Of a DNA stretch of 64,000 nucleotides, positions 1,533-34,993 are shown piece by piece. Under the pieces are notes generated by a model. The model was not told the DNA's origin and ran no database searches. It saw nothing but the letters and a program-made list of their open reading frames with translations. Origin of the DNA: Escherichia phage fDHCT2; the sequence record OR427838.1, one strand, 5' to 3'. Numbering within the stretch: position 1 is the stretch's first letter; the number at the start of each line of letters is the position of its first letter. A program made the position numbers and the translations under genes.

Positions 1533-2551
1533 CGCGTAACCTCATTATAAAGTTGTGCAGCCATGGTTTTGAGGGCCTTAACGTCATCTTCGGTATGTCC
1601 ATCTGGTAAAGCATCGATATAATCATACATCATATCCAAGAGGGACTTAACTTCATCTTCCTCTTCAGAATCATCGATATCAACGCTGTTATCTACCTTA
1701 GACACAATACGTAAAGAGTGAACAACCTTTTCAAGCTCTGATTCGAACTTAGTAAGACCGTCATCGATTTTATCGACTATAACACGAACTGCGATATTTG
1801 TAAAATCTTTGTAATCGATAGTCGCGTTAGGATAATGAATCTTACGATGCCAACAGGTTTCATTAATGATGAAATCCATTTTATGAGTTTCGGTATCGAA
1901 AATCCAGAAACCACGAGGGTCGTTCTCATCACCTGCAGTCAGGGTCCATGGAGTACCAATGTACTTAACGTTTGCTGCATCAGAAATAGTGTGGAAGTGG
2001 CCTGACCAAACTTGCTTATACTTTTTAAGGAAATCAGGTTCTAAACCATGGGATTTCATTCCTTTATAGAAATAGAAACCATTTAATTCCCAATGCCCAA
2101 TACAGAAATCTGCTGTGGTATTTTTGATATGGTCCATGATATCGGTCGTGTTTTCTTCACACATCCATGGAATCAAATCAATTTCGGTGCCATCAAAGTT
2201 AACCGTAGTAGGTTTTTCAATAACCTTGATATGGTCATATTTACCCAGAACTTCAGAAGCAGCATTAGGAGTCAAGGTATTTTTGTAGTGCATATCATGA
2301 TTACCAACAACGGTATACATGGTAATGCCATTAGCTTTAAGCAAATCAGAGATTTCGCGAGCGAATTCCATGCACTTGTGGGTAATTGCTTTACGAACAT
2401 CAAAGATATCACCGTATTGAATCCATACAGTAATGCCATTTGCTTTAGAATAATCAATAGCGTCTTGGATACCTTGACGTTGGATATTTTGTACCCACAC
2501 ATCATCAGCCTTAACTCCAAGGTGCCAGTCACCGGTGTTTAATATTTTCAT
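1529..2551 (-). CDS. 47: Recombination endonuclease subunit gp47 (Mre11/SbcD-like metallophosphoesterase)
   Basis: MKILNTGDWHLG N-terminus, GNHD and GHFH phosphoesterase motifs; start placed at internal Met (track ORF begins 9 codons upstream). Confidence 0.9.
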   Translation of the reverse strand: MKILNTGDWHLGVKADDVWVQNIQRQGIQDAIDYSKANGITVWIQYGDIFDVRKAITHKCMEFAREISDLLKANGITMYTVVGNHDMHYKNTLTPNAASEVLGKYDHIKVIEKPTTVNFDGTEIDLIPWMCEENTTDIMDHIKNTTADFCIGHWELNGFYFYKGMKSHGLEPDFLKKYKQVWSGHFHTISDAANVKYIGTPWTLTAGDENDPRGFWIFDTETHKMDFIINETCWHRKIHYPNATIDYKDFTNIAVRVIVDKIDDGLTKFESELEKVVHSLRIVSKVDNSVDIDDSEEEDEVKSLLDMMYDYIDALPDGHTEDDVKALKTMAAQLYNEVTR

Positions 2552-2693
2552 AAGCCAAGCGCCGTTATCGAAATACAAAATAAAATTATTGAAATGAACC
2601 CGTCAGAAGTGGAAAAGAATCCTATCCAACAAGCTCTTGTGAATGTGTAGAATGCCATGAATAACACGACATATCCTAAAAATAATTCCATAT
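2548..2693 (-). CDS. small hydrophobic peptide (~47 aa)
   Basis: SD gaggag + ATG; stop overlaps gp47 start (ATGA); below 60-aa track cutoff. Confidence 0.3.
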
Positions 2694-2711
2694 GTTCTCC
2701 TCAGTTGGTTC

Positions 2712-2740
2712 ATTTTATCATCCGAATATAAAGCAAAAAA
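2712..2740 (-). promoter_or_regulatory. candidate MotA-dependent middle promoter (GCTTTA box, 11 nt, TAAAAT)
   Basis: minus-strand ttttttGCTTTAtattcggatgaTAAAAT immediately after terminator T-run. Confidence 0.3.
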
Positions 2741-2754
2741 GGAGCCTAAGCTCC
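2735..2754 (-). terminator. rho-independent terminator
   Basis: minus-strand ggagcttaggctcc hairpin followed by TTTTTT. Confidence 0.5.
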
Positions 2755-2977
2755 TTTACCAATTAATACACCGTACAGAGGTTCGTGATTAGACCTGAAC
2801 TTGATAGGCTTATAGGTAATAGTACCTTCATTTTCCGCTTTAATACGAGCAGCTTCAAATTTAAGTATCATCTCATTTTTGTCAGATTTAATCTTATCAA
2901 AATCCGTCGAATTCGTCATTCATAAAACCTCTTAAACTTTTTCGTATTCGTCATTCATTAGCCTGCAGTCCATGTTA

Positions 2978-3178
2978 TCATCGCTGCCACCATTTCTTAA
3001 GTTGATGAGAATCTACCCAAACCTTGGCTACAGGTTCAATCTGAAAAATTCCATCAGAATACTGACCAACCATTTTGTATTCGGTTTCGGACTGCTTAAT
3101 ACAGATATTACCGTATGAGCGAAGTCTGAAAGCGGCTCCAACAAGAAGCCGTTTAAAGGGTTTATTTACTAAGGCCAT
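2978..3178 (-). CDS. hypothetical protein
   Basis: 66-aa ORF in tight minus-strand array. Confidence 0.4.
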   Translation of the reverse strand: MALVNKPFKRLLVGAAFRLRSYGNICIKQSETEYKMVGQYSDGIFQIEPVAKVWVDSHQLKKWWQR

Positions 3179-3473
3179 TGACGATTTCCCAAATTTGTTT
3201 GCGGGTAGATTCCCACATCAATTGAACAAGTTCATCAGTAACAGGTTGACGGTAAATACCGCGTAATTTAATTAAAGCGTACTTATATGCTTCAAAGTTG
3301 TTTTCAAGTACAGCGCCTTGGGCATGGAGATTTAAACGACGGATTTCACGAGCATTCTTCTTAAGAATCTTAGCCGCTTGCGAATTAGCTTCTTTAATAT
3401 TGTGCTCTTCTAAACGTTGCTGGGCTTCTTCAATTTGCTCATCAGTCAATTGAGAAATGTCATGGCTTTGCAT
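3162..3473 (-). CDS. hypothetical protein
   Basis: 103-aa ORF, helical/charged. Confidence 0.5.
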   Translation of the reverse strand: MQSHDISQLTDEQIEEAQQRLEEHNIKEANSQAAKILKKNAREIRRLNLHAQGAVLENNFEAYKYALIKLRGIYRQPVTDELVQLMWESTRKQIWEIVNGLSK

Positions 3474-3474
3474 A

Positions 3475-3741
3475 TTAATCCTTTGGAGTCAATTCGATAG
3501 TGAAGTAGAAATTAGCGTTCTCAACATGATAACGATAATCTACGTTATTGTCAGGAGAAGTGAATTCAATATTCCTGACGTTAAGTGGGTCAATATCAAT
3601 AGGAAGGCCTTTAACATCCCGTAATATCAATTTAATAAAATAAGGGAGTGCTTCGAAGTCTTCCATTCCATCTAAAAGTGGAGTGATATTAATCTGATGT
3701 TCCATATAAAAAATCCAGTTCGCCAACTTTAGGTTCGGCAC
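3475..3741 (-). CDS. hypothetical protein
   Basis: 88-aa ORF immediately downstream of gene 55; start may be an internal Met. Confidence 0.45.
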
Positions 3742-4246
3742 TCTTATCAGACCCTGGTGCTTTAGTTAAAGAGGTTTCATACTGTGTCATTTTATCGTAG
3801 ATATCTTGGATAAAGGTTTCATCTGCAATACCTACCATATCGTCATCATTACTGTCATAGACATTATGGACGAAGTAGCTGTATTTCTTTGCCATTTCTT
3901 TACGTTCTTTCTTGATACGCTGAACAAAGGCATTAAAACAAGCCATAGTGATATATGCATGTGGGTTGTCGTATTTTGTTTCGTCGAAGTTGTGAAGACC
4001 TTTAATAGAAGCTTCGATTCCATCAGCAATCATTTCTTGCTTCCAGGATTGGGTATACCCGGAGAAGTTGAAACGCTTAGAAAGGCCTTCAGCAATGAGC
4101 ATAATAGCCAAGCCGATAACATCGTTCTGACGAACTATTTTATTAGGATCGGTATTTTCTCGGAGCTCTGTTTTCCACTGGGTAATGGCTTTCAGAAGCT
4201 CCTTATTATTTACATAGTTATTTTTAGTCAGTTTAATTTCGGTCAT
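3689..4246 (-). CDS. 55: Late-transcription sigma factor gp55
   Basis: 185 aa; [63 protein letters not shown] match T4 gp55 from memory. Confidence 0.9.
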
Positions 4247-4312
4247 TGTTACCTCAGATAACTCAAATCATAGGTCTATTATATCATAGTATTTGAAGAC
4301 CCGTTTAAAGCA

Positions 4313-4576
4313 TCAACGGAGTAAGCAATAAGCCTGAAATACTGTTTCAAGAATTTTTTTGAACTCTTCAAAGGAAGGGGCCCCTTCAAACCCTTGGCTT
4401 TGAATGTAAAGGCAGAATTGTTGGTAAAGAACCAAATATTCGGATTGATTATATTTGGAAATATGAGACTTCCACACTTCAGAAGTCTCTCCGCAAATAA
4501 ACTCAACATTCATATAGTTATCTATTAAGAAAAATCCTAAGCCTTCATAAGCTAATGTTATGGATACAGGCGTCAT
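4313..4576 (-). CDS. hypothetical protein
   Basis: 87-aa ORF; 4-nt overlap with upstream ORF. Confidence 0.5.
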   Translation of the reverse strand: MTPVSITLAYEGLGFFLIDNYMNVEFICGETSEVWKSHISKYNQSEYLVLYQQFCLYIQSQGFEGAPSFEEFKKILETVFQAYCLLR

Positions 4577-4839
4577 TGTAGGAATCTGGCTCCTTCTAGT
4601 GCATCATCAAGATTATCAAACTCATCAACGTAATCAATACCGCCGACCTCATCTTTAGCGTATAGCCAGTACTGTTTAAATTCATATTCAATAATAAAGT
4701 GGTCACCCTCAATCTGGAGAACCCCATCACTATTAAATTGAACTGCATAACCGGTAAAGCGGACATCATTCAAGAGTTCTTCTTTCATAGCAATCATTTC
4801 CAAGTTTTTATCGTAATTAGAGAGTTTTATTTTAATCAT
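4573..4839 (-). CDS. hypothetical protein
   Basis: 88-aa ORF. Confidence 0.5.
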   Translation of the reverse strand: MIKIKLSNYDKNLEMIAMKEELLNDVRFTGYAVQFNSDGVLQIEGDHFIIEYEFKQYWLYAKDEVGGIDYVDEFDNLDDALEGARFLQ

Positions 4840-5080
4840 TTAAATAATCCTCAAATTCATTTAATGTCATGCCTTCGTCCCAAGCTATTTTAGGATCGGG
4901 CATTTTCATATAAGTGGTCTTAGAGCTTATAGGAAATATCCTGAAATCGCGATGACTTCCACTTAACATATTAGCCGCTTTTATAATAGTTTCACTATTA
5001 TTCATCATAGGGGTACGTTGGAAACCGGCTAAAGCTTTAAGGACTATTATAACCGATACATCTTCAGGCAAATTACTCAT
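4832..5080 (-). CDS. hypothetical protein
   Basis: 82-aa ORF. Confidence 0.5.
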   Translation of the reverse strand: MSNLPEDVSVIIVLKALAGFQRTPMMNNSETIIKAANMLSGSHRDFRIFPISSKTTYMKMPDPKIAWDEGMTLNEFEDYLND

Positions 5081-5406
5081 TTCGCAGCCTTAACAATTTT
5101 CAGGTCAACGAATTTTTTCTTACGTTGATTCTTCATACGACGGATGGTTTTGTCTGTGATTTCACCTGGCTGCCAAGCTTTAGATTCAACACCAAAGGCG
5201 GCCACATCAAACTCGTCGAGAATATATTGAACCAGGATTTCACGAATACCGTTCTTACCAATTTTTTGGTCTTTAGAGTGCATGATTGGTAACAGTTCAG
5301 CAACCCATTGGTCAAGAACCTGAGGAGTTACAAAGCCGGTTTTCATCAGTTCGTTAACTTTATCGAAAGCGAAAGAGTTCAGTACGTTTTTAATAGCTTG
5401 TGACAT
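5077..5406 (-). CDS. hypothetical protein (basic C-terminus)
   Basis: 109-aa ORF preceded by gaggaaa SD. Confidence 0.5.
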   Translation of the reverse strand: MSQAIKNVLNSFAFDKVNELMKTGFVTPQVLDQWVAELLPIMHSKDQKIGKNGIREILVQYILDEFDVAAFGVESKAWQPGEITDKTIRRMKNQRKKKFVDLKIVKAAK

Positions 5407-5474
5407 AATAATTTCCTCAGTTTAAAATTTATAATCCATGGGACCATTATACTCGGGTCCCAAGAGTTTGTAAA

Positions 5475-5675
5475 CTATTTTTGTGCTAATGCGCCTTTCC
5501 AACCTTCATACATCATTGCGGCCGATATTAATATTGCTCCTGAGCATTTTGAATATTTGTTATTCCAAAACCAGTTTAGAAAAACTTCATCATCAATACC
5601 TTGGGCTATCATATTTTCAAAGAACTGACGTCGAGATTCAGCAATTCGCTGTGATAATTTAGATTCAGGATTCAT
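5475..5675 (-). CDS. hypothetical protein
   Basis: 66-aa ORF. Confidence 0.45.
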   Translation of the reverse strand: MNPESKLSQRIAESRRQFFENMIAQGIDDEVFLNWFWNNKYSKCSGAILISAAMMYEGWKGALAQK

Positions 5676-5900
5676 TTAAATTTTCCAGTTACCGTGTTTA
5701 TCAATGAATTTAATCCAGTCATTTACTGACCACGTGGTTGTATCGCCCTTTGGACTGACATTTAAAGTGTATAGTCCTTGCTTAAAAAGCATCCGTTTGA
5801 TATTCATATTTTCCTCAGCTGTAACGATAGCATTCGTTTGATTTACGTTTTGCAACTTGATGAGAAGTATTGTAATCAGGTTCATCGTCGTTGTAAACAT
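5676..5900 (-). CDS. hypothetical protein (true start possibly internal Met near 5807)
   Basis: 74-aa ORF overlapping the 3' end of the next ORF. Confidence 0.35.
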   Translation of the reverse strand: MFTTTMNLITILLIKLQNVNQTNAIVTAEENMNIKRMLFKQGLYTLNVSPKGDTTTWSVNDWIKFIDKHGNWKI

Positions 5901-6108
5901 CTTTTTTCAGCTTTCTCACTTCTTTACGAAGCTGGCGATTCATTTCATTCTTAACTTCAGAATCAACACCGCGCATACGTTTCCACTTGTCGGAACGGAA
6001 GATATTTTCTTCAACTCGTTCCTGACTTACGCCGTCTGGTGCTTTACGGCGTCCGGAATAATAAAAATCTTTTACAGACAATTCTTTACGACGGATAGTT
6101 TTACCCAT
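5815..6108 (-). CDS. hypothetical highly basic protein
   Basis: 97-aa Lys/Arg-rich ORF. Confidence 0.45.
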   Translation of the reverse strand: MGKTIRRKELSVKDFYYSGRRKAPDGVSQERVEENIFRSDKWKRMRGVDSEVKNEMNRQLRKEVRKLKKDVYNDDEPDYNTSHQVAKRKSNECYRYS

Positions 6109-6110
6109 AG

Positions 6111-6365
6111 TTACCTCAACAGTTTGTATCCAATAAGATTTTTAATGTACTGGATGTCTTTGACATCCAAATCCAACTTAATATCTTTCAAGCGCTCAGC
6201 CAGAGTAAGAAATGTTACTCGCTTCCAATTCTTAACCGGACAGCAATAAGTTTTCGGCCCGTTAGCGATTTCAATATTTTTATCTGTGGCGGTGATAAAA
6301 ATCAAACGTTCATCATCAAGATTAAGGGTGATGACATTTTTCATTGAATGTAATTTCAGGCTCAT
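6111..6365 (-). CDS. hypothetical protein
   Basis: 84-aa ORF. Confidence 0.45.
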   Translation of the reverse strand: MSLKLHSMKNVITLNLDDERLIFITATDKNIEIANGPKTYCCPVKNWKRVTFLTLAERLKDIKLDLDVKDIQYIKNLIGYKLLR

Positions 6366-6544
6366 AATTTAATTTCCTTGGCTATCGAACAAAACAAACT
6401 ACGGTCACATACCATCATTGGAATATTTCTATGGTCCAGTACACGATACCATACGTCTGAATCGCTAGCAGCAATTACACGAACCGCACGCCCGTTTACC
6501 AAATAATACTGGTCGGCTTTAATTTCTTTATCTTGGATAGTCAT
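6362..6544 (-). CDS. hypothetical protein
   Basis: 60-aa ORF directly downstream of an early promoter. Confidence 0.5.
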   Translation of the reverse strand: MTIQDKEIKADQYYLVNGRAVRVIAASDSDVWYRVLDHRNIPMMVCDRSLFCSIAKEIKL

Positions 6545-6573
6545 AATGTTCTCCTCATGTGTTGATAGGATAG

Positions 6574-6602
6574 ACTATAACACGTGAGGAGAGGAAGTAA
6601 AC
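6574..6602 (-). promoter_or_regulatory. T4-type early sigma70 promoter
   Basis: minus-strand GTTTAC-17nt-TATAGT with TGn; -10 flanked by inverted repeat ctcctcacgtgt/acacatgaggag that includes the SD. Confidence 0.55.
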
Positions 6603-6603
6603 A

Positions 6604-6921
6604 CTAATCTTCAATTAAATCTCGGTCATAACCAAGTTCAATCAAAAGTGCTTTAAAAGCAGGAATATTTTCTATTTTCTTATTATCAACAAAGATGACA
6701 GGATAGCGTATAGCTAAGCTCTTGAAGCCGGCCCGTTTGGCCAATGATACTATAAGAGGCTTGTCATATACTGCGCCTGACAGCGTCCGGTTAATCACAG
6801 GATAGAAAGTATGTGGGATAGAAAGGGAATTTAGGAGCGATAGAACAGCAATGCACCCTGGACAGCGCATGACTGTCTCAGGGATACCGTAAATCTCAAT
6901 TTTAGTTAACTTTTGGTCCAC
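6604..6921 (-). CDS. thioredoxin/glutaredoxin-fold protein (CPGC active-site motif)
   Basis: KIEIYG beta-strand followed by CPGC; 105 aa. Confidence 0.55.
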   Translation of the reverse strand: MDQKLTKIEIYGIPETVMRCPGCIAVLSLLNSLSIPHTFYPVINRTLSGAVYDKPLIVSLAKRAGFKSLAIRYPVIFVDNKKIENIPAFKALLIELGYDRDLIED

Positions 6922-7198
6922 AGGAAATAACTCCTTGGTAGTCCCAAGTTTTTAGAACTTCGTCTTCATTAGTTCCATATGGGACGTAAATCTGGATAAG
7001 GAACCCAGTATCATCAAAAGAGAAGTAGACAGTAGGTTTAATACCATGAATCTCTGACAGAGCATAGATGTCCTTGAGGTCGTCTTCCTTACCTTTAAAG
7101 AATTCAGGGTTCAGGTCACAGTCATGGAAGTACCAATCATCACCAAACTTGTCCCATGCGGTCCAATTCAAAGCTACATATTCTTCAAAACGTTTCAT
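6902..7198 (-). CDS. hypothetical protein
   Basis: 98-aa ORF. Confidence 0.45.
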   Translation of the reverse strand: MKRFEEYVALNWTAWDKFGDDWYFHDCDLNPEFFKGKEDDLKDIYALSEIHGIKPTVYFSFDDTGFLIQIYVPYGTNEDEVLKTWDYQGVISCGPKVN

Positions 7199-7422
7199 TC
7201 TTTCACCTTCATCATTTTTGCTATAACACTATGAACAGCCTGGATTCGTTTGTTGAACTCAGACCCTTCAAGACCTTTTTCAGTACTCAGCGCACCAATA
7301 ATAACGAACAGCAATCCAAATGGGATGGCCAGGATTAAAAGGCACACGATAAACAGAACTAATGTAATATTGGCCAGGATATCAGAAACAGCATTACGAA
7401 ATTTATTCATTAAAGAACCCAC
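7195..7422 (-). CDS. small membrane protein
   Basis: 75 aa with a long hydrophobic stretch LANITLVLFIVCLLILAIPFGLLFVIIGAL. Confidence 0.5.
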   Translation of the reverse strand: MGSLMNKFRNAVSDILANITLVLFIVCLLILAIPFGLLFVIIGALSTEKGLEGSEFNKRIQAVHSVIAKMMKVKE

Positions 7423-7531
7423 ATATTAGTTACAACAAATAACCATTGAGCAGGATACTCAACACCCATAATACGCACTGCATCGTTCAGAGATTCAGCT
7501 AGAGCATAGAATGTGTAGCCATAAAAATTAA

Positions 7532-8005
7532 TCATTTAAGCGATTTCCTCAGTTGTTTTTTAAATGAATCGACCATTTGTTTCTTTGTGTCAGATTCATT
7601 ATAAGTCATTCCATGTGAAAGCATTTCAGCAATCATTTCTTCCTTACCTAATCTACTGAACTCTTTGGTTTTATCAGGAACGAAATTAGGATGGATATTG
7701 TTTTCAGTGTAATCAGATTTCAGATAGACCAGCAAATTCTCTAACCATTCGAGGTAGTCAACGTTTTGACCTTTAAGACCAGAACGGTTGAACTTATGCT
7801 TCATTTGTCCTTCTGCAGCATTGCACAGGTTACATAGTAAACCACGAACCTTACCGGCTTTCGGCCCATTCAATTCATGGTCGTGGTCAAGGTGGTTACT
7901 TTGAACATCAGGGTTTAATTCACGTTTACAAATCAAACACTTACCATGTTGTACATCATAAAGTTTTTGTTTTTCTTCTTTGTATAGTTTGCCAGTCAAC
8001 AACAT
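7532..8005 (-). CDS. 49: Endonuclease VII (Holliday-junction resolvase) gp49
   Basis: 157 aa; MLLTGKLYKEEKQKLYD...HLDHDHELNGPKAGKVRGLLCNLCN matches T4 gp49 from memory. Confidence 0.9.
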   Translation of the reverse strand: MLLTGKLYKEEKQKLYDVQHGKCLICKRELNPDVQSNHLDHDHELNGPKAGKVRGLLCNLCNAAEGQMKHKFNRSGLKGQNVDYLEWLENLLVYLKSDYTENNIHPNFVPDKTKEFSRLGKEEMIAEMLSHGMTYNESDTKKQMVDSFKKQLRKSLK

Positions 8006-8134
8006 AATAAACCCTTACCATTATTAGATAAGGGTATTTATTAATATCCTAATAGTTTAGCAGTGCAACTTAGCACTAACAACAATCCGAATAAAACGAC
8101 TCCGACCCAAAATACCGTAATAAGATCATCCATA

Positions 8135-8311
8135 TCAGACCCCGTAGAACGAGCGATGTAACCGTTTAAATTGACGAATCATCTTTTTGGTAGGACGGGT
8201 GTATAACCCTACACAGGTGGCCATAAACTGGTCAGTAGGACTTCCTTTGATAAGAAGTTTCCAGACCTTGTCACCATTTAACTTTTCAGTATAGACTAAT
8301 ACAGTTTTCAT
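8135..8311 (-). CDS. small hypothetical protein (58 aa)
   Basis: ATG ORF below the 60-aa track cutoff, in an otherwise unannotated 600-bp stretch. Confidence 0.3.
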   Translation of the reverse strand: MKTVLVYTEKLNGDKVWKLLIKGSPTDQFMATCVGLYTRPTKKMIRQFKRLHRSFYGV

Positions 8312-10839: not shown

Positions 10840-11709
10840 TTATTTTAGAGCTAATACTGCCGCGCGAAGCTTGTCACGCTGGATTTCCATATTCTTGATG
10901 CGAATCAATACGTCTTGAATACTCTTTTTCTCATCTTCGATCTGACCATTTAAACGGTGGATTGATTCCTGGAGGTGGTCCTCATGATACTTCTCGATAG
11001 GTTTCATCGTAGGGTTAGTAACAACCAAAGAATTATCAGGTTTAATTTTCCAATGATACGGTTCTGAATTGAATGGACTCGGCACAGCCGTGGTTTTGAA
11101 TTTGTCATAAGTAGCATACTGGCCTACAGGCCCATATGACGCGGTGGAGATTCGACGTTCCATTTGTGGGTCCTTTTGTTGTGGTTGATAAGGCGCATAA
11201 GACAAAAGATATTCACGAGTTAGTTTAACATTAAAATACACTGCATCAGGCCGCCCGGAACAATCAGCATATTCATCTGTTGTAACCTTATATGATTCTA
11301 CTGCCTTAATACGAGTCATTGCCTCTCTGAATAAGGTTTCGAATGCTTCACGAAGGGCCTTATTGCCTTTTGAGGTGGGACGGAAACGAACTTGAATACC
11401 GTCAGGCAGAATATTAATGACCAGGTTACGAGCCGTAAAATTAATATTTTTGATATTAACAGGAACCGTAGAAATACGTCCTGCAGTAGCCAAGAGGTCT
11501 TTAATATTAGCTCGTAATGTCGCGCCAAATAAATGAGCTGGGCTACGGCAATAATCGTTCAAAGAACTAATATAAGTTCCTTTACGGCCTACGCCGTAAG
11601 TGTAGTTACCATTACGAATCTGACCAAAGTCTGCTAACCGGTCAATAGCGATACGACGAGTAGTGTCATGGTCGTATATAGAGTATTCTTTACGCGTTTT
11701 AATGTTCAT
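10840..11709 (-). CDS. hypothetical protein (~289 aa)
   Basis: long ORF, start at MNIKTRKEY; coiled-coil C-terminus. Confidence 0.55.
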   Translation of the reverse strand: MNIKTRKEYSIYDHDTTRRIAIDRLADFGQIRNGNYTYGVGRKGTYISSLNDYCRSPAHLFGATLRANIKDLLATAGRISTVPVNIKNINFTARNLVINILPDGIQVRFRPTSKGNKALREAFETLFREAMTRIKAVESYKVTTDEYADCSGRPDAVYFNVKLTREYLLSYAPYQPQQKDPQMERRISTASYGPVGQYATYDKFKTTAVPSPFNSEPYHWKIKPDNSLVVTNPTMKPIEKYHEDHLQESIHRLNGQIEDEKKSIQDVLIRIKNMEIQRDKLRAAVLALK

Positions 11710-11710
11710 A

Positions 11711-11911
11711 TTAAAGTCCAAATAATTTTTCATAGAGTTTAGCTAAAGGCCAAGTCACAATAGAAACTATTCCAAATAAAGCAAGCACCGGCCAAATAAA
11801 GGTAGCGAATACTGCTTCGCCACCTGAGCTAATTTCCATATGTTTGCGGCCAATCAGAACAGTAATGAATCCTAATGCAAGGTACAGAAGAATAAAACCT
11901 GCGATTTCCAT
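11711..11911 (-). CDS. small membrane protein
   Basis: 66 aa, two hydrophobic helices. Confidence 0.5.
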   Translation of the reverse strand: MEIAGFILLYLALGFITVLIGRKHMEISSGGEAVFATFIWPVLALFGIVSIVTWPLAKLYEKLFGL

Positions 11912-11913
11912 AA

Positions 11914-12753
11914 TTAATCCTTAAGAAGATTTAGGATATCGATATATTTCTGACGTTCGGCCTTAGCTTTAGCATTCAGACCAGAGAGTCGGAAAATCTC
12001 ATCATCTTGTTGCTGAATTGTAACATTCAAGCAAGTAAGCAAATTGCTAAAATACTCGATTTGAGCTTGATGTTTCTCATTGCTGCGCACTGGTACAGGT
12101 TCTGGTTTAGGAGCTTCTGGGTGCTCTTCAGCCAGGTCTTTAATTTTATAAAGTTTAATACGCTGACCTGCTCCAGTTTCGGCATCACCAAAACTAAGAA
12201 CACCGCGGCATTCCAGTACAGACAACGCCAAACGAAGATGGAATTTCCAGTTTTCGTATTGACATCCACTAAAAGAAGAAATACTGTATTCACCTTCATT
12301 TTGACCTTTAATAACATTAAATAGTTTATAATCTAAAGAATTATTGGTTTTAAATGTCATTTGTTTATCAAGACCTTTTGCAAGTCGAGCACCAAGAGCC
12401 AGTAGACGTCGTTGGTTGGCATGAAGGTCTTGAACAACTTCGTCAAATGACATCACCGGGATTAAACGACCATAAAGGTCGTAGCCTTTGTTATAATTTT
12501 TAAGAATAATTTTGGCATTAGCACGAGACAACATACCCGTTTTACGAAGAGTTTTCATGACTCGGTCTTCTAACGTAAACGAACCTTTAGTCTTGTCAAA
12601 GATTTTAGTGAAGTCATCTTTAACAGTACAAACGTTGAACTTGTCCCACATCATATATAGAACCTTTTCAACTACTTCTTTAGAACTCGGAATACGACCA
12701 AATTTAACAACTTTTTTAACTTCAGAACGAATTTGATTAATTGCCTGTGACAT
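11914..12753 (-). CDS. hypothetical protein (279 aa)
   Basis: long ORF with gaggaaa SD. Confidence 0.55.
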   Translation of the reverse strand: MSQAINQIRSEVKKVVKFGRIPSSKEVVEKVLYMMWDKFNVCTVKDDFTKIFDKTKGSFTLEDRVMKTLRKTGMLSRANAKIILKNYNKGYDLYGRLIPVMSFDEVVQDLHANQRRLLALGARLAKGLDKQMTFKTNNSLDYKLFNVIKGQNEGEYSISSFSGCQYENWKFHLRLALSVLECRGVLSFGDAETGAGQRIKLYKIKDLAEEHPEAPKPEPVPVRSNEKHQAQIEYFSNLLTCLNVTIQQQDDEIFRLSGLNAKAKAERQKYIDILNLLKD

Positions 12754-12816
12754 AATAATTTCCTCAGTAAGTAATTAAGAACCTAGAACCATTATACCAT
12801 CCTTGGTATAAAGCGT

Positions 12817-13341
12817 TTATGCGAGAACCGTCTTTAAACGCTCTTCAAATTTCTGAAGCAGAGCTTGGCGTTCAGCTCGTTGTGATTTGTACTGCTCGAT
12901 ACGACCTGAAGTGAGGGCGTACTGTTCGTTTACTGATTCCCGCATGAATTCAGGAATCTCTTTACAAGCTTTGATTTCGTCAAACTTATCAATAACAGCT
13001 TGTTGTTCAGCAATCAGATTATCGAAATAAGCGATATCAGATTTAACGTTTGCCAGGTCGGATTCAGTAGGCATTAAACGTTTGTTACGTTCAGCTTGAT
13101 AAGCTTGATTGTTTTCACGACTCCAGTGAAGAGTACGTTTTTTGTTAGTGTTTTTATAGAGCTCTACAATACCAACTGAATCGATGACTGCAATCCAGTT
13201 CCAATGGCTTTTGTAAATCTCTCCTCCAGATACGGTAATCTCATTACCACAAGCAACATCGTTAAAGAACTTGCTTTGTTTTTCAGATTTGAAATTACCG
13301 TTGTTGAAATTAATCAGTGAAAAAATATCTTTAGCGTTCAT
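12817..13341 (-). CDS. hypothetical protein (174 aa)
   Basis: ORF directly downstream of an early promoter. Confidence 0.55.
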   Translation of the reverse strand: MNAKDIFSLINFNNGNFKSEKQSKFFNDVACGNEITVSGGEIYKSHWNWIAVIDSVGIVELYKNTNKKRTLHWSRENNQAYQAERNKRLMPTESDLANVKSDIAYFDNLIAEQQAVIDKFDEIKACKEIPEFMRESVNEQYALTSGRIEQYKSQRAERQALLQKFEERLKTVLA

Positions 13342-13750: not shown

Positions 13751-14731
13751 TTATTTCAGAAGTGTAACTTCAGCGATTTCGCTCCAGTCATTTTTATCGG
13801 TGGCAATGAAGTCCGCCAGATAAAGAGCCGTACGTAATGATACGTTACGAAGACGAGATACATTGGCCTTCATCCATGCTAGAGCTTGATAAGTCTCAGC
13901 ATCAGTCAGACCTCGGTTTTGCATCATATCAGTGGACAGGATAACGTCTTCAACACGAACCATAATCTCTTCATTCGAGTGAACTCCGAGGTCTAAGTAA
14001 ACTGAACGAGATACTAAAGCCTGGAGGTGTGGAGCAAGTTTAGTGCCACGTTCTAATTCACGGTCAATATCAACGTTGGTGATGAACACGATGGTGCCTT
14101 CATATTCGAATTCTTTATCGATATTTTTATCATCGAGGTAAGAACTTGAAGTGCTCCAGCACACCTTACGTTTTTCACCGGTATCCAATGCCGCTTTTAA
14201 CAGGTTCAGGATATCCATATCAGAGAATACATCGACATCATCGATAAGAAGAACACTATTAGGGCCGCGGTTATTCCAAAGCTGCTCGTAAAGACCGATT
14301 CCACTAATCTTTCCGTTGATTGATTTATATTCGATAGTTTCATTTTCGTGGGCATTCTGTAATGCTTTATCCAAAGAATACGTTTTACCAATACCTGCGG
14401 CACCAGAGATGATAAGGGAACGAATTTTACCATCGATGATTCCGTTAGTCATCATGTTCATTACTTTAAAACGTTTGTTGATGCGGTGTTTCATTTCTTC
14501 AGCGGATTCAGTAACCACTACAGGAGCTTCAGCACCTTCCATTTCAACATCACATTTGAACACCCATATACCACGTTCAACACCATCAATCTGTACGAAT
14601 ACCTTACCATCACCGAGGTGAGCTTCGGATTCATGAATTTTGTTAGGGAACCAGGTTTTACCTGAACTCATGAACGTACCAGAGATTTCATTACCGCGAT
14701 AGATACCTTTGTTGATTTTGATAGTTAACAT
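13751..14731 (-). CDS. P-loop (AAA-type) ATPase with ~120-aa N-terminal domain
   Basis: Walker A GAAGIGKT, Walker B VLLIDDVD; start at MLTIKINKG. Confidence 0.65.
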   Translation of the reverse strand: MLTIKINKGIYRGNEISGTFMSSGKTWFPNKIHESEAHLGDGKVFVQIDGVERGIWVFKCDVEMEGAEAPVVVTESAEEMKHRINKRFKVMNMMTNGIIDGKIRSLIISGAAGIGKTYSLDKALQNAHENETIEYKSINGKISGIGLYEQLWNNRGPNSVLLIDDVDVFSDMDILNLLKAALDTGEKRKVCWSTSSSYLDDKNIDKEFEYEGTIVFITNVDIDRELERGTKLAPHLQALVSRSVYLDLGVHSNEEIMVRVEDVILSTDMMQNRGLTDAETYQALAWMKANVSRLRNVSLRTALYLADFIATDKNDWSEIAEVTLLK

Positions 14732-14813: not shown

Positions 14814-14839
14814 CCCAAAAAAGGACCCCGAAGGGTCCT
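14814..14839 (-). terminator. rho-independent terminator
   Basis: minus-strand aggacccttcggggtcct hairpin + TTTTTT. Confidence 0.6.
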
Positions 14840-15033: not shown

Positions 15034-16044
15034 TTAACGGTAATAAGAGTTGTGGTTGTCAAGATACACCTCTTCGACGAACTTGTCCCAGAACTTCATG
15101 TCCACCTTCGCAGGCATACCGTTCTTAGCAGCCCAGATGGCATTAGTTTCGACTTCATCAACTATAGCTTCAAGTTCAGCCTGCACATCTTTAAAAGCAT
15201 GTAACCCCTGTTTGATTTCAAGGATAAATGGCGCAGTACGTAAAGGGTATTGAAGGTCACCAGTTTGATAGATTTCCTTCAACTGGTATCCGGCCCTATA
15301 AGCATGACTCAGAGCTTTCCAGTCAATACCTTCATTGGCTTCTGCCTTACGAGCACGTTCACCATATTCGGCGTCAAGCTTATTCAGAGATTGCTTGAGC
15401 TCGATTAATGACAAAGTAGTCTGATATTTACGTCCGAGAACAGTATAGAACGTTTGTGGGCCTGTTTTCTCATGGTTATGGAATACCCATTCACAGAATT
15501 CGTTTTCAGGGAGTCGATGTTTGATATCTTCTACCTTAGTGCGACGTTGTTTAGTGGAACCATCTTCTTGATAATCGACCCACTGTTCAGGAATCTGGTT
15601 AACAATTGCCAGTACACCACGTAAAGCGGCCAGACGAGAACCTTTAACACCATATTTAGAAGCTTGCTTACGGACGTACCCTAAATAGGCTTTCATGTTG
15701 GTTGTATAGAAACGCGAACGGTTGTCTTGGATAAATTTCCATACGTCAGGTAAATCAGATTTAACCACCATTTCAGGTGGGGTGTGGAGCATATCCAGAG
15801 CAACGGTTTCGCCATCAGCAGCCAGTTTAAAGAAATATTTCAGGCTATAAAGCTCATGGTCAACATCATCTTTAGTGTTTTTGGAAGCAGTGTTATTCGT
15901 GTTCAGGTTGGTATGGTTCATAGCCGTACCTAACAGAATATCACGCGGATGTGGAACAAAGATTTCTTTAAAATCGATATCAGATTCCGGAGTACTTGTT
16001 CCATAAAGGTGGCTACCGAAGTAGCCTTTCATAACTGTTCTCAT
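15034..16044 (-). CDS. Pol-beta-superfamily nucleotidyltransferase (336 aa)
   Basis: GSHLYGTSTPESDIDF (GS-x9-DxD) motif and downstream DVDHE; ATGA overlap with upstream membrane-protein stop. Confidence 0.7.
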   Translation of the reverse strand: MRTVMKGYFGSHLYGTSTPESDIDFKEIFVPHPRDILLGTAMNHTNLNTNNTASKNTKDDVDHELYSLKYFFKLAADGETVALDMLHTPPEMVVKSDLPDVWKFIQDNRSRFYTTNMKAYLGYVRKQASKYGVKGSRLAALRGVLAIVNQIPEQWVDYQEDGSTKQRRTKVEDIKHRLPENEFCEWVFHNHEKTGPQTFYTVLGRKYQTTLSLIELKQSLNKLDAEYGERARKAEANEGIDWKALSHAYRAGYQLKEIYQTGDLQYPLRTAPFILEIKQGLHAFKDVQAELEAIVDEVETNAIWAAKNGMPAKVDMKFWDKFVEEVYLDNHNSYYR

Positions 16045-16493
16045 TCTTTGTTCTCGAAGTGGATTACAGGACACATCTTAGATTTACGAGCTTTAATGTA
16101 TTGAATAACGATATTTTCTTTAGTTTCTCGGCCTTCACGCTCAGCTTGAATACGTTGCCATTCCTTTTCTTCTCTACGGGCATCATACCATGCGTGTAAA
16201 TTCATCGCACCAAATGCCAAACCAATGGATAGCGCAATAATAAGAGCTATTGCAATCAACCCTAAAACAAACCCTAGACTCAACAGAACAGGAGTACTTA
16301 ATACAAAGAAATGCTCTAATACACCAGCTCCTGCAACAGTTAATCCAAAAAGCGTACTACCTGCAACAACAGCACAAGCAAAACAAGCCCAAATCATTTT
16401 CCAGAAATATGCACATAAAGAGTGTGGTCGAGAATGGCTGTCATAAAAATGGTCGTGTAATTTAACGTGCCAAGAGTTTGAATTGATAATCAT
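16041..16493 (-). CDS. membrane protein (2-3 TM helices)
   Basis: 150 aa with long hydrophobic segments; translationally coupled to the nucleotidyltransferase. Confidence 0.6.
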   Translation of the reverse strand: MIINSNSWHVKLHDHFYDSHSRPHSLCAYFWKMIWACFACAVVAGSTLFGLTVAGAGVLEHFFVLSTPVLLSLGFVLGLIAIALIIALSIGLAFGAMNLHAWYDARREEKEWQRIQAEREGRETKENIVIQYIKARKSKMCPVIHFENKE

Positions 16494-16503
16494 AATATTT
16501 TCC

Positions 16504-17064
16504 TTAAGAGTTCATAGTTGGGATAACAGAGTTCAGATAAGAGACTAAAACTTTTAGCTCGTCTTTAGTAAATACAACTTCACTTTCACCGTCATGTCTT
16601 TGGACAATGGACAACAAATCACGACCCTGATGTTGATACACGGATAATTCGGTATCATAATCCAGTTCTTCTTCATCACCTTCAAATGTTTCACTAGAAC
16701 GAATTACAGCATCTTGTCCAGGGACTTTCCATTCAACTTCTGGCTTGCATTCTTCCTGGAAGAGTTTGAAAATACATTTAAAGAAATTACTAGAATCGCT
16801 AATGCTTAGGCATTCCGTATCAGTTTCGATATTAAACCCGTTGTCATGGTTATAAATCTGGGCCCACATATCATCATTAATATCAAATACACCTCTAAAA
16901 CTACCATTAAGATATTCGTGTTTGTCCAAAACCTTTAAATCGTAAAGTGGTTTGATATCTTGGATAGTCAGTACGATTTTATCGTCTTCTTGTGAAAGCA
17001 CAATTGCATTATCAACTACTTCAGCGGTCAGGTCACCAAACAGCCCAGATGTTTCAATAATCAT
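16504..17064 (-). CDS. hypothetical acidic protein (186 aa)
   Basis: Asp/Glu-rich ORF. Confidence 0.55.
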   Translation of the reverse strand: MIIETSGLFGDLTAEVVDNAIVLSQEDDKIVLTIQDIKPLYDLKVLDKHEYLNGSFRGVFDINDDMWAQIYNHDNGFNIETDTECLSISDSSNFFKCIFKLFQEECKPEVEWKVPGQDAVIRSSETFEGDEEELDYDTELSVYQHQGRDLLSIVQRHDGESEVVFTKDELKVLVSYLNSVIPTMNS

Positions 17065-18029: not shown

Positions 18030-18059
18030 ATAGTATCACGTTCCTAGAGGATGTAAATA
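18030..18059 (-). promoter_or_regulatory. T4-type early sigma70 promoter
   Basis: ATTTAC-17nt-TACTAT with TGa, located just downstream of a terminator. Confidence 0.5.
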
Positions 18060-18065
18060 CCTAAA

Positions 18066-18093
18066 CGAAAAAAGGTCCCACCGAAGTGAGACC
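18066..18093 (-). terminator. rho-independent terminator
   Basis: minus-strand ggtctcac-TTCG-gtgggacc hairpin + TTTTTT. Confidence 0.65.
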
Positions 18094-18098
18094 TTTGA

Positions 18099-34836: not shown

Positions 34837-34911
34837 TGGTATCCCGCCCTGGGATCGAACCAGGACCGCAAACTTAGAAGGATCGTATGCTATCCATTAC
34901 ACCAGCGGGAC
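34837..34911 (-). tRNA. tRNA-Arg (anticodon UCU)
   Basis: hand-folded cloverleaf: acceptor gtcccgc/gcgggat, anticodon loop cuUCUaa, T-arm cctgg-TTCGATC-ccagg, encoded CCA. Confidence 0.7.
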
Positions 34912-34916
34912 ATAGT

Positions 34917-34993
34917 TGGTGACCCGGACCAGATTTGAACTGGTAACCTTTCCCTTATGAGGGGACTGCTGCTAACCATTGAGCTACAGGGCC
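34917..34993 (-). tRNA. tRNA with CAU anticodon (Ile2-lysidine type or Met)
   Basis: resembles E. coli tRNA-Ile2: anticodon loop cuCAUaa, T-arm accag-TTCAAAT-ctggt, encoded CCA; acceptor stem has one mismatch. Confidence 0.6.

Follow-up and report, generated by a model that had tools for sequence, protein, structure and literature searches.

A window of 64,000 nucleotides from Escherichia phage fDHCT2 (OR427838.1) was analyzed with a focus on two adjacent open reading frames (ORFs), one for a nucleotidyltransferase (NTase) and one for a small membrane protein. The 336-residue NTase is an ortholog of T4 NrdC.11 and a member of the RlaP family, and it is probably a phage RlaP, that is, a template-independent NTase that acts on RNA 3' ends and rebuilds tRNAs damaged by anticodon nucleases, together with the healing and ligase enzymes of the phage. 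The 150-residue membrane protein encoded upstream is most likely the product of an independent accessory gene. The original prediction, made from the sequence of the window, had instead likened the two to NTase/effector pairs of the CD-NTase or OAS type and to nucleotide-modifying anti-defence enzymes. It is supported in part, but a relation to CD-NTase or OAS was not borne out, as no family match was found and the pairing of the genes is loose. It had correctly placed both ORFs at 15034-16493 without giving their strand, which is the minus strand. The pair comprises the following features:

16041-16493, minus strand: membrane protein, 150 residues (PHROG 944; family of JS98 gp092 and RB32ORF096c)
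15034-16044, minus strand: NTase, 336 residues, ATG start (T4 NrdC.11 ortholog; RlaP, PF10127; PHROG 388)
16041-16044, minus strand: ATGA stop/start overlap of the membrane gene and the NTase gene (from the sequence)

The window belongs to a T-even-type phage, and this stretch of it shares about 91-93% DNA identity with Escherichia phages MN04, 04086, IME341, and CLB_P2. Both ORFs are real genes, with matches to PHROG 388 (E 1.6e-133) for the NTase and to PHROG 944 (E 1.4e-55) for the membrane protein. The NTase shares 97-99% identity with its counterparts in phages MN04 and VR7 and 83%, over residues 1-336, with NrdC.11 of T4 and T2. The T4 gene (NP_049709, T4p095), annotated as "nucleotidyltransferase" in RefSeq, sits between mobD/mobD.1 and nrdC.10; the claim that T4 has no counterpart was thus wrong, since T4 NrdC.11 has the same length and occupies the same genomic position. 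The shared length of 336 residues corresponds to the ATG start, and an in-frame GTG upstream of it, at 16074, has no support from homologs. Full-length identity and the conserved flanks mobD.1/y05I and nrdC.10 bear out the membership in PHROG 388. The NTase matches the Pfam RlaP model PF10127 over residues 8-134 with 42.4 bits (cut-off 23; E 8.7e-11), and all 119 listed full-length homologs have a precomputed assignment to PF10127, the one exception being a fragment of 242 residues. The distribution in phages, which the original prediction had suggested surveying, is wide: tblastn returned matches to the NTase in 1,549 phage records and to the membrane protein in 803. The orthologs are often misannotated as "thioredoxin" in GenBank and UniRef, a label that probably spread through the gene name nrdC, and once as "HNH homing endonuclease." A shorter NTase of 303 residues occurs as a natural variant in Escherichia phage vB_EcoM_005 (locus L010, 3651-4909).

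The catalytic center is formed by two elements:

15970-16017, minus strand: catalytic motif GSHLYGTSTPESDIDF, residues 10-25 of the NTase, comprising the G-S loop and the metal-binding carboxylates of DxD (from sequence and alignment)
15853-15867, minus strand: DVDHE, residues 60-64 of the NTase, at the start of the strand formed by residues 61-67 (from sequence and model)

In an alignment of 141 relatives, most of them 35-55% identical to the NTase and three closer at 68-83%, residues G10, S21, D22, and D24 never vary, and at least 90% of the sequences conserve S11, N56, D60, D62, and D84. The catalytic acidic set therefore survives alignment, and its third carboxylate is likely D60 or D62. 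Much of what had been read from the letters was recovered here, including the acidic triad across the 141 sequences, the downstream DVDHE, and a helical C-terminal domain; the proposed GS-x9-DxD signature is present as well, but its spacer has 10 residues and not 9. The AlphaFold2 (AF2) model, with a predicted local distance difference test (pLDDT) value of 95, starts with the NTase domain, continues with an insert rich in beta structure (about residues 154-208), and then has helices at 213-335; this order was set against the published description of the Pseudomonas fluorescens enzyme PfRlaP. In a PDB set that did not contain PfRlaP, the nearest solved folds were HalB, minimal and KNTase-type NTases, and HEPN-like helical bundles, the latter similarity falling in the NTase's own C-terminal domain. 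Sequence searches of the same set, with the single sequence or with the profile of the 141 sequences, found nothing meaningful.

The acronym RlaP stands for RNA-ligase-associating Pol-beta; the family was defined by comparative genomics through the presence of its genes in RNA-repair operons. Among phage NTases predicted to put lost nucleotides back onto cleaved RNA before it is ligated, RlaP was the most prevalent in a comparative study of jumbo phages, and its distribution parallels that of RNA ligases (PMC7824862). A preprint of December 2025 reports that the RlaP enzymes of P. fluorescens and P. aeruginosa add one or two nucleoside monophosphates to the 3'-OH of RNA, with a preference for Mn2+ and, on a mimic of a cleaved tRNA, for the broken end at the anticodon side over the acceptor end (PMC12776372). 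These enzymes are inactive on DNA and protein, leave E. coli proteins unlabeled, and partly restore the aminoacylation of a tRNA that lacks one nucleotide; they also label rRNA, full-length tRNA, and many other E. coli RNAs with little specificity for the nucleoside triphosphate (NTP) (PMC12776372). The crystal structure of PfRlaP shows an N-terminal NTase domain and a C-terminal helical domain that form a cleft. T4 NrdC.11 was placed in the family, in the separate sequence cluster 5 (PMC12776372). The NTase is thus catalogued and named in the literature, and its gene is widely conserved and assigned to a described family.

For the phage enzyme, G10-S11, D22/D24, and D60 or D62 would bind the NTP and two divalent metals, which are Mn2+ in the characterized bacterial enzymes, and one or two nucleotides would be added, untemplated, to broken RNA at its 3'-OH. 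The enzyme would probably act on tRNA halves that have lost a nucleotide to an anticodon nuclease of the host, and the end-healing and sealing enzymes of the phage, which in T4 are Pnkp and Rnl1/Rnl2, could then rebuild a usable tRNA. The gene is expected to be nonessential, probably early or middle, with a likely role in counter-defense. In T4, the region from nrdC.11 to mobD.3 can be deleted (PMC9825161), which fits such an accessory role.

The RNA-repair neighborhood of full-length bacterial relatives of NrdC.11 is new in this analysis. One genome per species was scanned, giving 80 loci with full-length relatives, most of which are 34-44% identical to the phage NTase; neighboring ORFs were clustered and representatives were scanned against Pfam. 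Same-strand genes for Pnkp, Hen1, RtcB, or Ro60/TROVE occur no more than 5 kb from the NTase gene at 13 of the 80 loci, where the relatives are 34-42% identical, and the bacterial Pnkp, a kinase-phosphatase-ligase, often ends exactly at the NTase start. Locus L104 encodes Hen1 (5-1354), Pnkp (2361-4991), and the NTase (5001-5972), an order also present in L115, whereas the NTase of L080 (5001-5912) follows Ro60 (555-2177) and RtcB (2709-3938) and precedes Hen1 (6746-8158). Further examples are Pnkp in L098 (2338-5004) and RtcB in L100 (579-1919). At these bacterial loci, the NrdC.11-like subfamily itself therefore shows the hallmark of RlaP, beyond the distant Pseudomonas members. More generally, the gene upstream of the bacterial relatives is often in stop/start overlap with the NTase gene. 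As a separate observation, the RlaP gene of the metagenomic phage contig L041 (sites 6001-7978 and 11703-12969) is directly followed by a gene for an AcrVA2-like protein (PF26125), and a CCA-adding enzyme is encoded about 5 kb downstream; the AcrVA2-like protein was ruled out as a homolog of NrdC.10 (BLASTP E 0.7).

The membrane gene lies upstream of the NTase gene in most T-even relatives, but the link between the two is loose. The predicted ATGA overlap is present, with the TGA stop codon of the membrane ORF at 16041-16043 and the ATG of the NTase at 16042-16044. However, by a crude gene call of the window, ATGA overlaps occur at 13 of 89 same-strand gene junctions and overlaps of any kind at 34 of 89, so that the overlap reflects the style of this genome and is no evidence of partnership. 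The NTase start codon tends to be overlapped in this manner by any gene that immediately precedes it. The shared transcription unit and the ATGA junction would thus result from tight gene packing and not from an enzyme/effector system. Among 31 viral loci, the membrane gene abuts the NTase gene in about 13. In about 12, one to three unrelated ORFs separate the two, the membrane gene being 0.4-1.7 kb upstream, and in 6 it was undetected by tblastn. In T4, the homing endonuclease gene mobD is directly upstream of nrdC.11 (locus L004, 1130-1909), and a homolog of the membrane protein is absent. The two proteins also differ in their divergence: between fDHCT2 and its Tequatrovirus relatives, identity is 83% for the NTase and about 30% for the membrane protein, and in some phages an NTase that is 96-97% identical accompanies a membrane protein that is only 70-76% identical. 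Aeromonas phage 31 (AY962392) encodes the membrane homolog PHG31p209 between gene 32 and an Rnl2-like ligase (locus L036, 5001-5390), with no RlaP nearby, and a lambdoid prophage-like contig from a Cellvibrionaceae metagenome-assembled genome likewise carries the membrane gene with no RlaP in the vicinity. In Acinetobacter phage 133, a membrane gene whose product is 24% identical is found two genes upstream of RlaP, and the shared neighborhood is therefore old, as is true of a large part of the gene order here.

Two further observations concern these loci. The site upstream of nrdC.11, corresponding to the junction at 16041-16050 of the window, is an insertion hotspot; one of the ORFs found there (locus L007, 3237-4001) has an HNH-like motif and possibly encodes a homing endonuclease, and other Enterobacteriaceae-type phages (loci L018-L027, about 3450-4004) carry ORFs of 136-184 residues. 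Like mobD of T4, each of them runs into the start codon of the NTase gene. The ORFs inserted between the membrane gene and the NTase gene in other phages matched no Pfam family. In Aeromonas phage 31, PHG31p209 is apart from an NTase gene yet close to another RNA-repair gene, that of the Rnl2-like ligase (5845-6945).

The membrane protein belongs to a phage-only family without a Pfam model and would be a separate, fast-evolving accessory protein of the inner membrane with two helices. It is hydrophobic at about residues 25-100, and its AF2 model, of moderate confidence (pLDDT 77), has two long helices at residues 26-62 and 68-119, the hydrophobic part of the second being about 68-100; it is a membrane protein, as had been proposed, with two such helices, in keeping with the two to three transmembrane helices that were counted. 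In the model, residues 2-4 at the N terminus and 145-147 at the C terminus form short strands that probably pair with each other, in which case both termini would probably be cytoplasmic. Residues W8, H9, L26, C27, and Y29 are invariant in the family and C141 and F146 are conserved in at least 90% of its members; the N-terminal motifs SWH and LC.Y are invariant and the C-terminal K.CP..F is nearly so. Together with the terminal strands, these residues suggest a small cytoplasmic His/Cys site (residues 7-9, 26-29, and 139-146) that is possibly metal binding or redox active. A Foldseek search of the model, itself of only moderate confidence, against the PDB gave zero matches at E <=10, HalA included, and thus no support for HalA or a known channel or holin fold. 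In phage vB_EcoM_005 (L010), the membrane gene is truncated at its N terminus to 117 residues and is without the conserved SWH/LC.YFWK region.

Several points weigh against an RlaP that repairs tRNAs and acts independently of the membrane protein. The activity ascribed to NrdC.11 is that of distant bacterial members of the family, the Pfam model covers only the N-terminal 127 residues (8-134) of the NTase, and the C-terminal half with its beta-rich insert at about 150-210 is divergent and particular to this subfamily. No recurrent RNA-repair neighbor was found at 67 of the 80 bacterial loci, an RNA ligase gene and a Pnkp gene are both missing from this operon, and the NTase gene is not beside a ligase in T4-like phages. 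The membrane gene is upstream of the NTase gene over a very wide range, which is more synteny than expected by chance, although the gene order of the T4-like early region is broadly conserved. In addition, the Shine-Dalgarno sequence of the NTase gene is weak (GAGAACAAAGA ahead of the ATG) while that of the membrane gene is good (AAGGA); some translational coupling to the membrane gene is therefore plausible, and a real coupling would be compatible with this sequence. Joint action of PHROG 944 and NrdC.11, be it as a membrane tether or regulator of an RNA-end transferase, as a Hailong-like membrane protein guarded by its NTase, or as a decoy, would account for the ATGA junction and the weak ribosome-binding site, for the upstream position that persists to Acinetobacter phage 133, and for HalB as the nearest solved fold. 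It would also imply that T4 and the other lineages without the membrane gene have lost one half of the system, and we consider it very unlikely. Scarcely more probable is a module of NTase and membrane effector, with signal gating of the CBASS or OAS type, a channel kept closed by an oligonucleotide product of the NTase as in Hailong, or a phage decoy. CD-NTase or OAS identity of the NTase was rejected: there was no Pfam, PADLOC, or top structural match and no obligately linked effector. No defence-system model of PADLOC fits the NTase or the membrane protein, and CD-NTases, cGAS, OAS, and CCA-adding enzymes were all missing from the top structural matches of the NTase and from its Pfam and PADLOC matches.

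The NTase could also nucleotidylate a target other than RNA, either a protein by AMPylation, as do MNT antitoxins and DrrA, or a small molecule, as do KNTase, ANT, and LinB. Comparison with the families named in the original prediction returned a likeness to KNTase-type enzymes at the level of the fold only, and none to CD-NTase, OAS, or CCA-adding enzymes. An MNT antitoxin of a type VII toxin-antitoxin system was rejected, as NCBIfam MntA scored 14 bits against a cut-off of 60 and a separate HEPN gene is missing; the NCBIfam scan of the pair gave only subthreshold noise, and Pfam NTP_transf_2 remained below threshold. An ANT was dismissed on account of a missing sequence-family match and a different genomic context. 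The assayed RlaP members left E. coli proteins and DNA unlabeled (PMC12776372), and the bacterial relatives neighbor RNA-repair enzymes and not toxins or resistance cassettes, so that a non-RNA target appears improbable. A small but appreciable chance is left to an NTase that works on RNA 3' ends for another purpose, such as restoring the CCA end of tRNAs or tailing host transcripts for decay at shut-off. The broad labeling of E. coli RNAs by RlaP with little NTP specificity (PMC12776372), the NTase gene that is not beside a ligase in T4-like phages, and the CCA-adding enzyme near RlaP on contig L041 would be in line with such a role, whereas the preference of characterized RlaP enzymes for the break at the anticodon side rather than for the acceptor end (PMC12776372) and the bacterial Pnkp, Hen1, and RtcB neighborhood point to the repair of breaks. 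Similarity to CCA-adding or poly(A) polymerases (PF01743) was found neither by Pfam nor among the top structural matches, and this identity was likewise rejected. Repair of cleaved tRNAs by a phage RlaP remains the reading that we favor.

The two genes appear to be part of a larger transcription unit, to which the following features of the window relate:

18030-18096, minus strand: likely upstream boundary of the transcription unit (consensus matches only)
16504-17064, minus strand: y05I/MobD.1-like putative transcription factor, 186 residues, upstream neighbor (from Pfam and the annotation of phage SP18)
14838-15062, minus strand: DUF7279 ORF, 74 residues, PHROG 8921, TTG start, GAGG Shine-Dalgarno sequence, last gene of the unit
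14822-14839, minus strand: terminator-like hairpin of 7 pairs (5 G-C) with a trailing T run, immediately behind the DUF7279 ORF (consensus match only)
13751-14731, minus strand: NrdC.10, 326 residues from M30 of the listed ORF, P-loop/STAND-like ATPase, downstream neighbor given as context outside the pair (PHROG 1250)

The putative unit of small genes would begin at 18096-18030, where a strong terminator-like hairpin (18096-18071) precedes a promoter-like site (18057-18030; TTTACA-16-TACTAT and a TG upstream of it), would end with the genes for y05I/MobD.1, the membrane protein, NrdC.11, and the DUF7279 ORF, and would be closed by the hairpin at 14839-14822. Promoter-like sites (23 versus 19.7 expected from shuffled sequence) and terminator-like sites (4 versus 5.2) are not enriched in number, and the boundaries of the operon are therefore tentative. 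The upstream neighbor matches Pfam T4_y05I_N (E 9.3e-43) and T4_y05I_C (E 4.3e-20) and is named mobD.1 in phage SP18. The DUF7279 ORF overlaps the final 29 nucleotides of the NTase gene and follows nrdC.11 in only some relatives. NrdC.10 matches PHROG 1250 (E 6.7e-163) in an alignment that starts at residue 30, its Pfam AAA_14 and nSTAND matches being below threshold, and shows a weak helix-turn-helix-like match at the C terminus. The TTG at 14818 that is listed as its start is probably not the true one, as the homologs and PHROG 1250 begin at M30 (14731); the extra 5' stretch of the listed ORF contains the hairpin at 14839-14822 and a promoter-like site of nrdC.10 itself at 14796-14769. Elsewhere in the window, adjacent genes for tRNA-Arg (TCT) and tRNA-Met (CAT) were noted at 34837-34993 on the minus strand.

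As a discovery, the identification of this gene carries little weight, but it has a practical value in that T4 NrdC.11 represents a genetically tractable, nonessential phage RlaP. If NrdC.11 were shown to rescue tRNAs from anticodon nucleases that excise a nucleotide, this would complete the classic story of RNA repair by T4 Pnkp and Rnl1.

Among the known systems, CD-NTases, cGAS, and OAS share with the phage enzyme only the catalytic core of the Pol-beta superfamily, and the phage enzyme lacks a conserved effector partner. KNTase, ANT(4'), and the minimal NTases, which carry a helical domain for substrate binding, are 10-14% identical to it and differ by the missing sequence-family match and by their genomic context. 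In Hailong, the NTase HalB makes oligodeoxyadenylate, as a tetramer that primes synthesis on one of its tyrosines, and HalA is a DNA-gated membrane channel (PMC13434031). Although HalB is the nearest solved fold, it has about 217 residues, is 13% identical, and gives no sequence-profile match; HalA is a tetrameric channel with a cytoplasmic crown domain, in contrast to a phage membrane protein of 150 residues with two helices and no structural match, and the pairing of the NTase gene with the membrane gene is not obligate. The phage enzyme departs from RlaP in its divergent C-terminal half with the beta-rich insert and in a gene that is not beside a ligase, but the two have in common the GS/DxD/acidic set and, going by the AF2 model, probably an NTase domain joined to a helical domain, and some bacterial relatives of the phage enzyme are in Pnkp/Hen1 and RtcB operons. 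T4 differs by the HNH homing endonuclease gene mobD in the place of the membrane gene. Its NrdC.11 agrees with the NTase of fDHCT2 in length (336 residues, 83% identity) and in genomic place, with mobD.1/y05I and nrdC.10 on either side in the early region from nrdC to tk.

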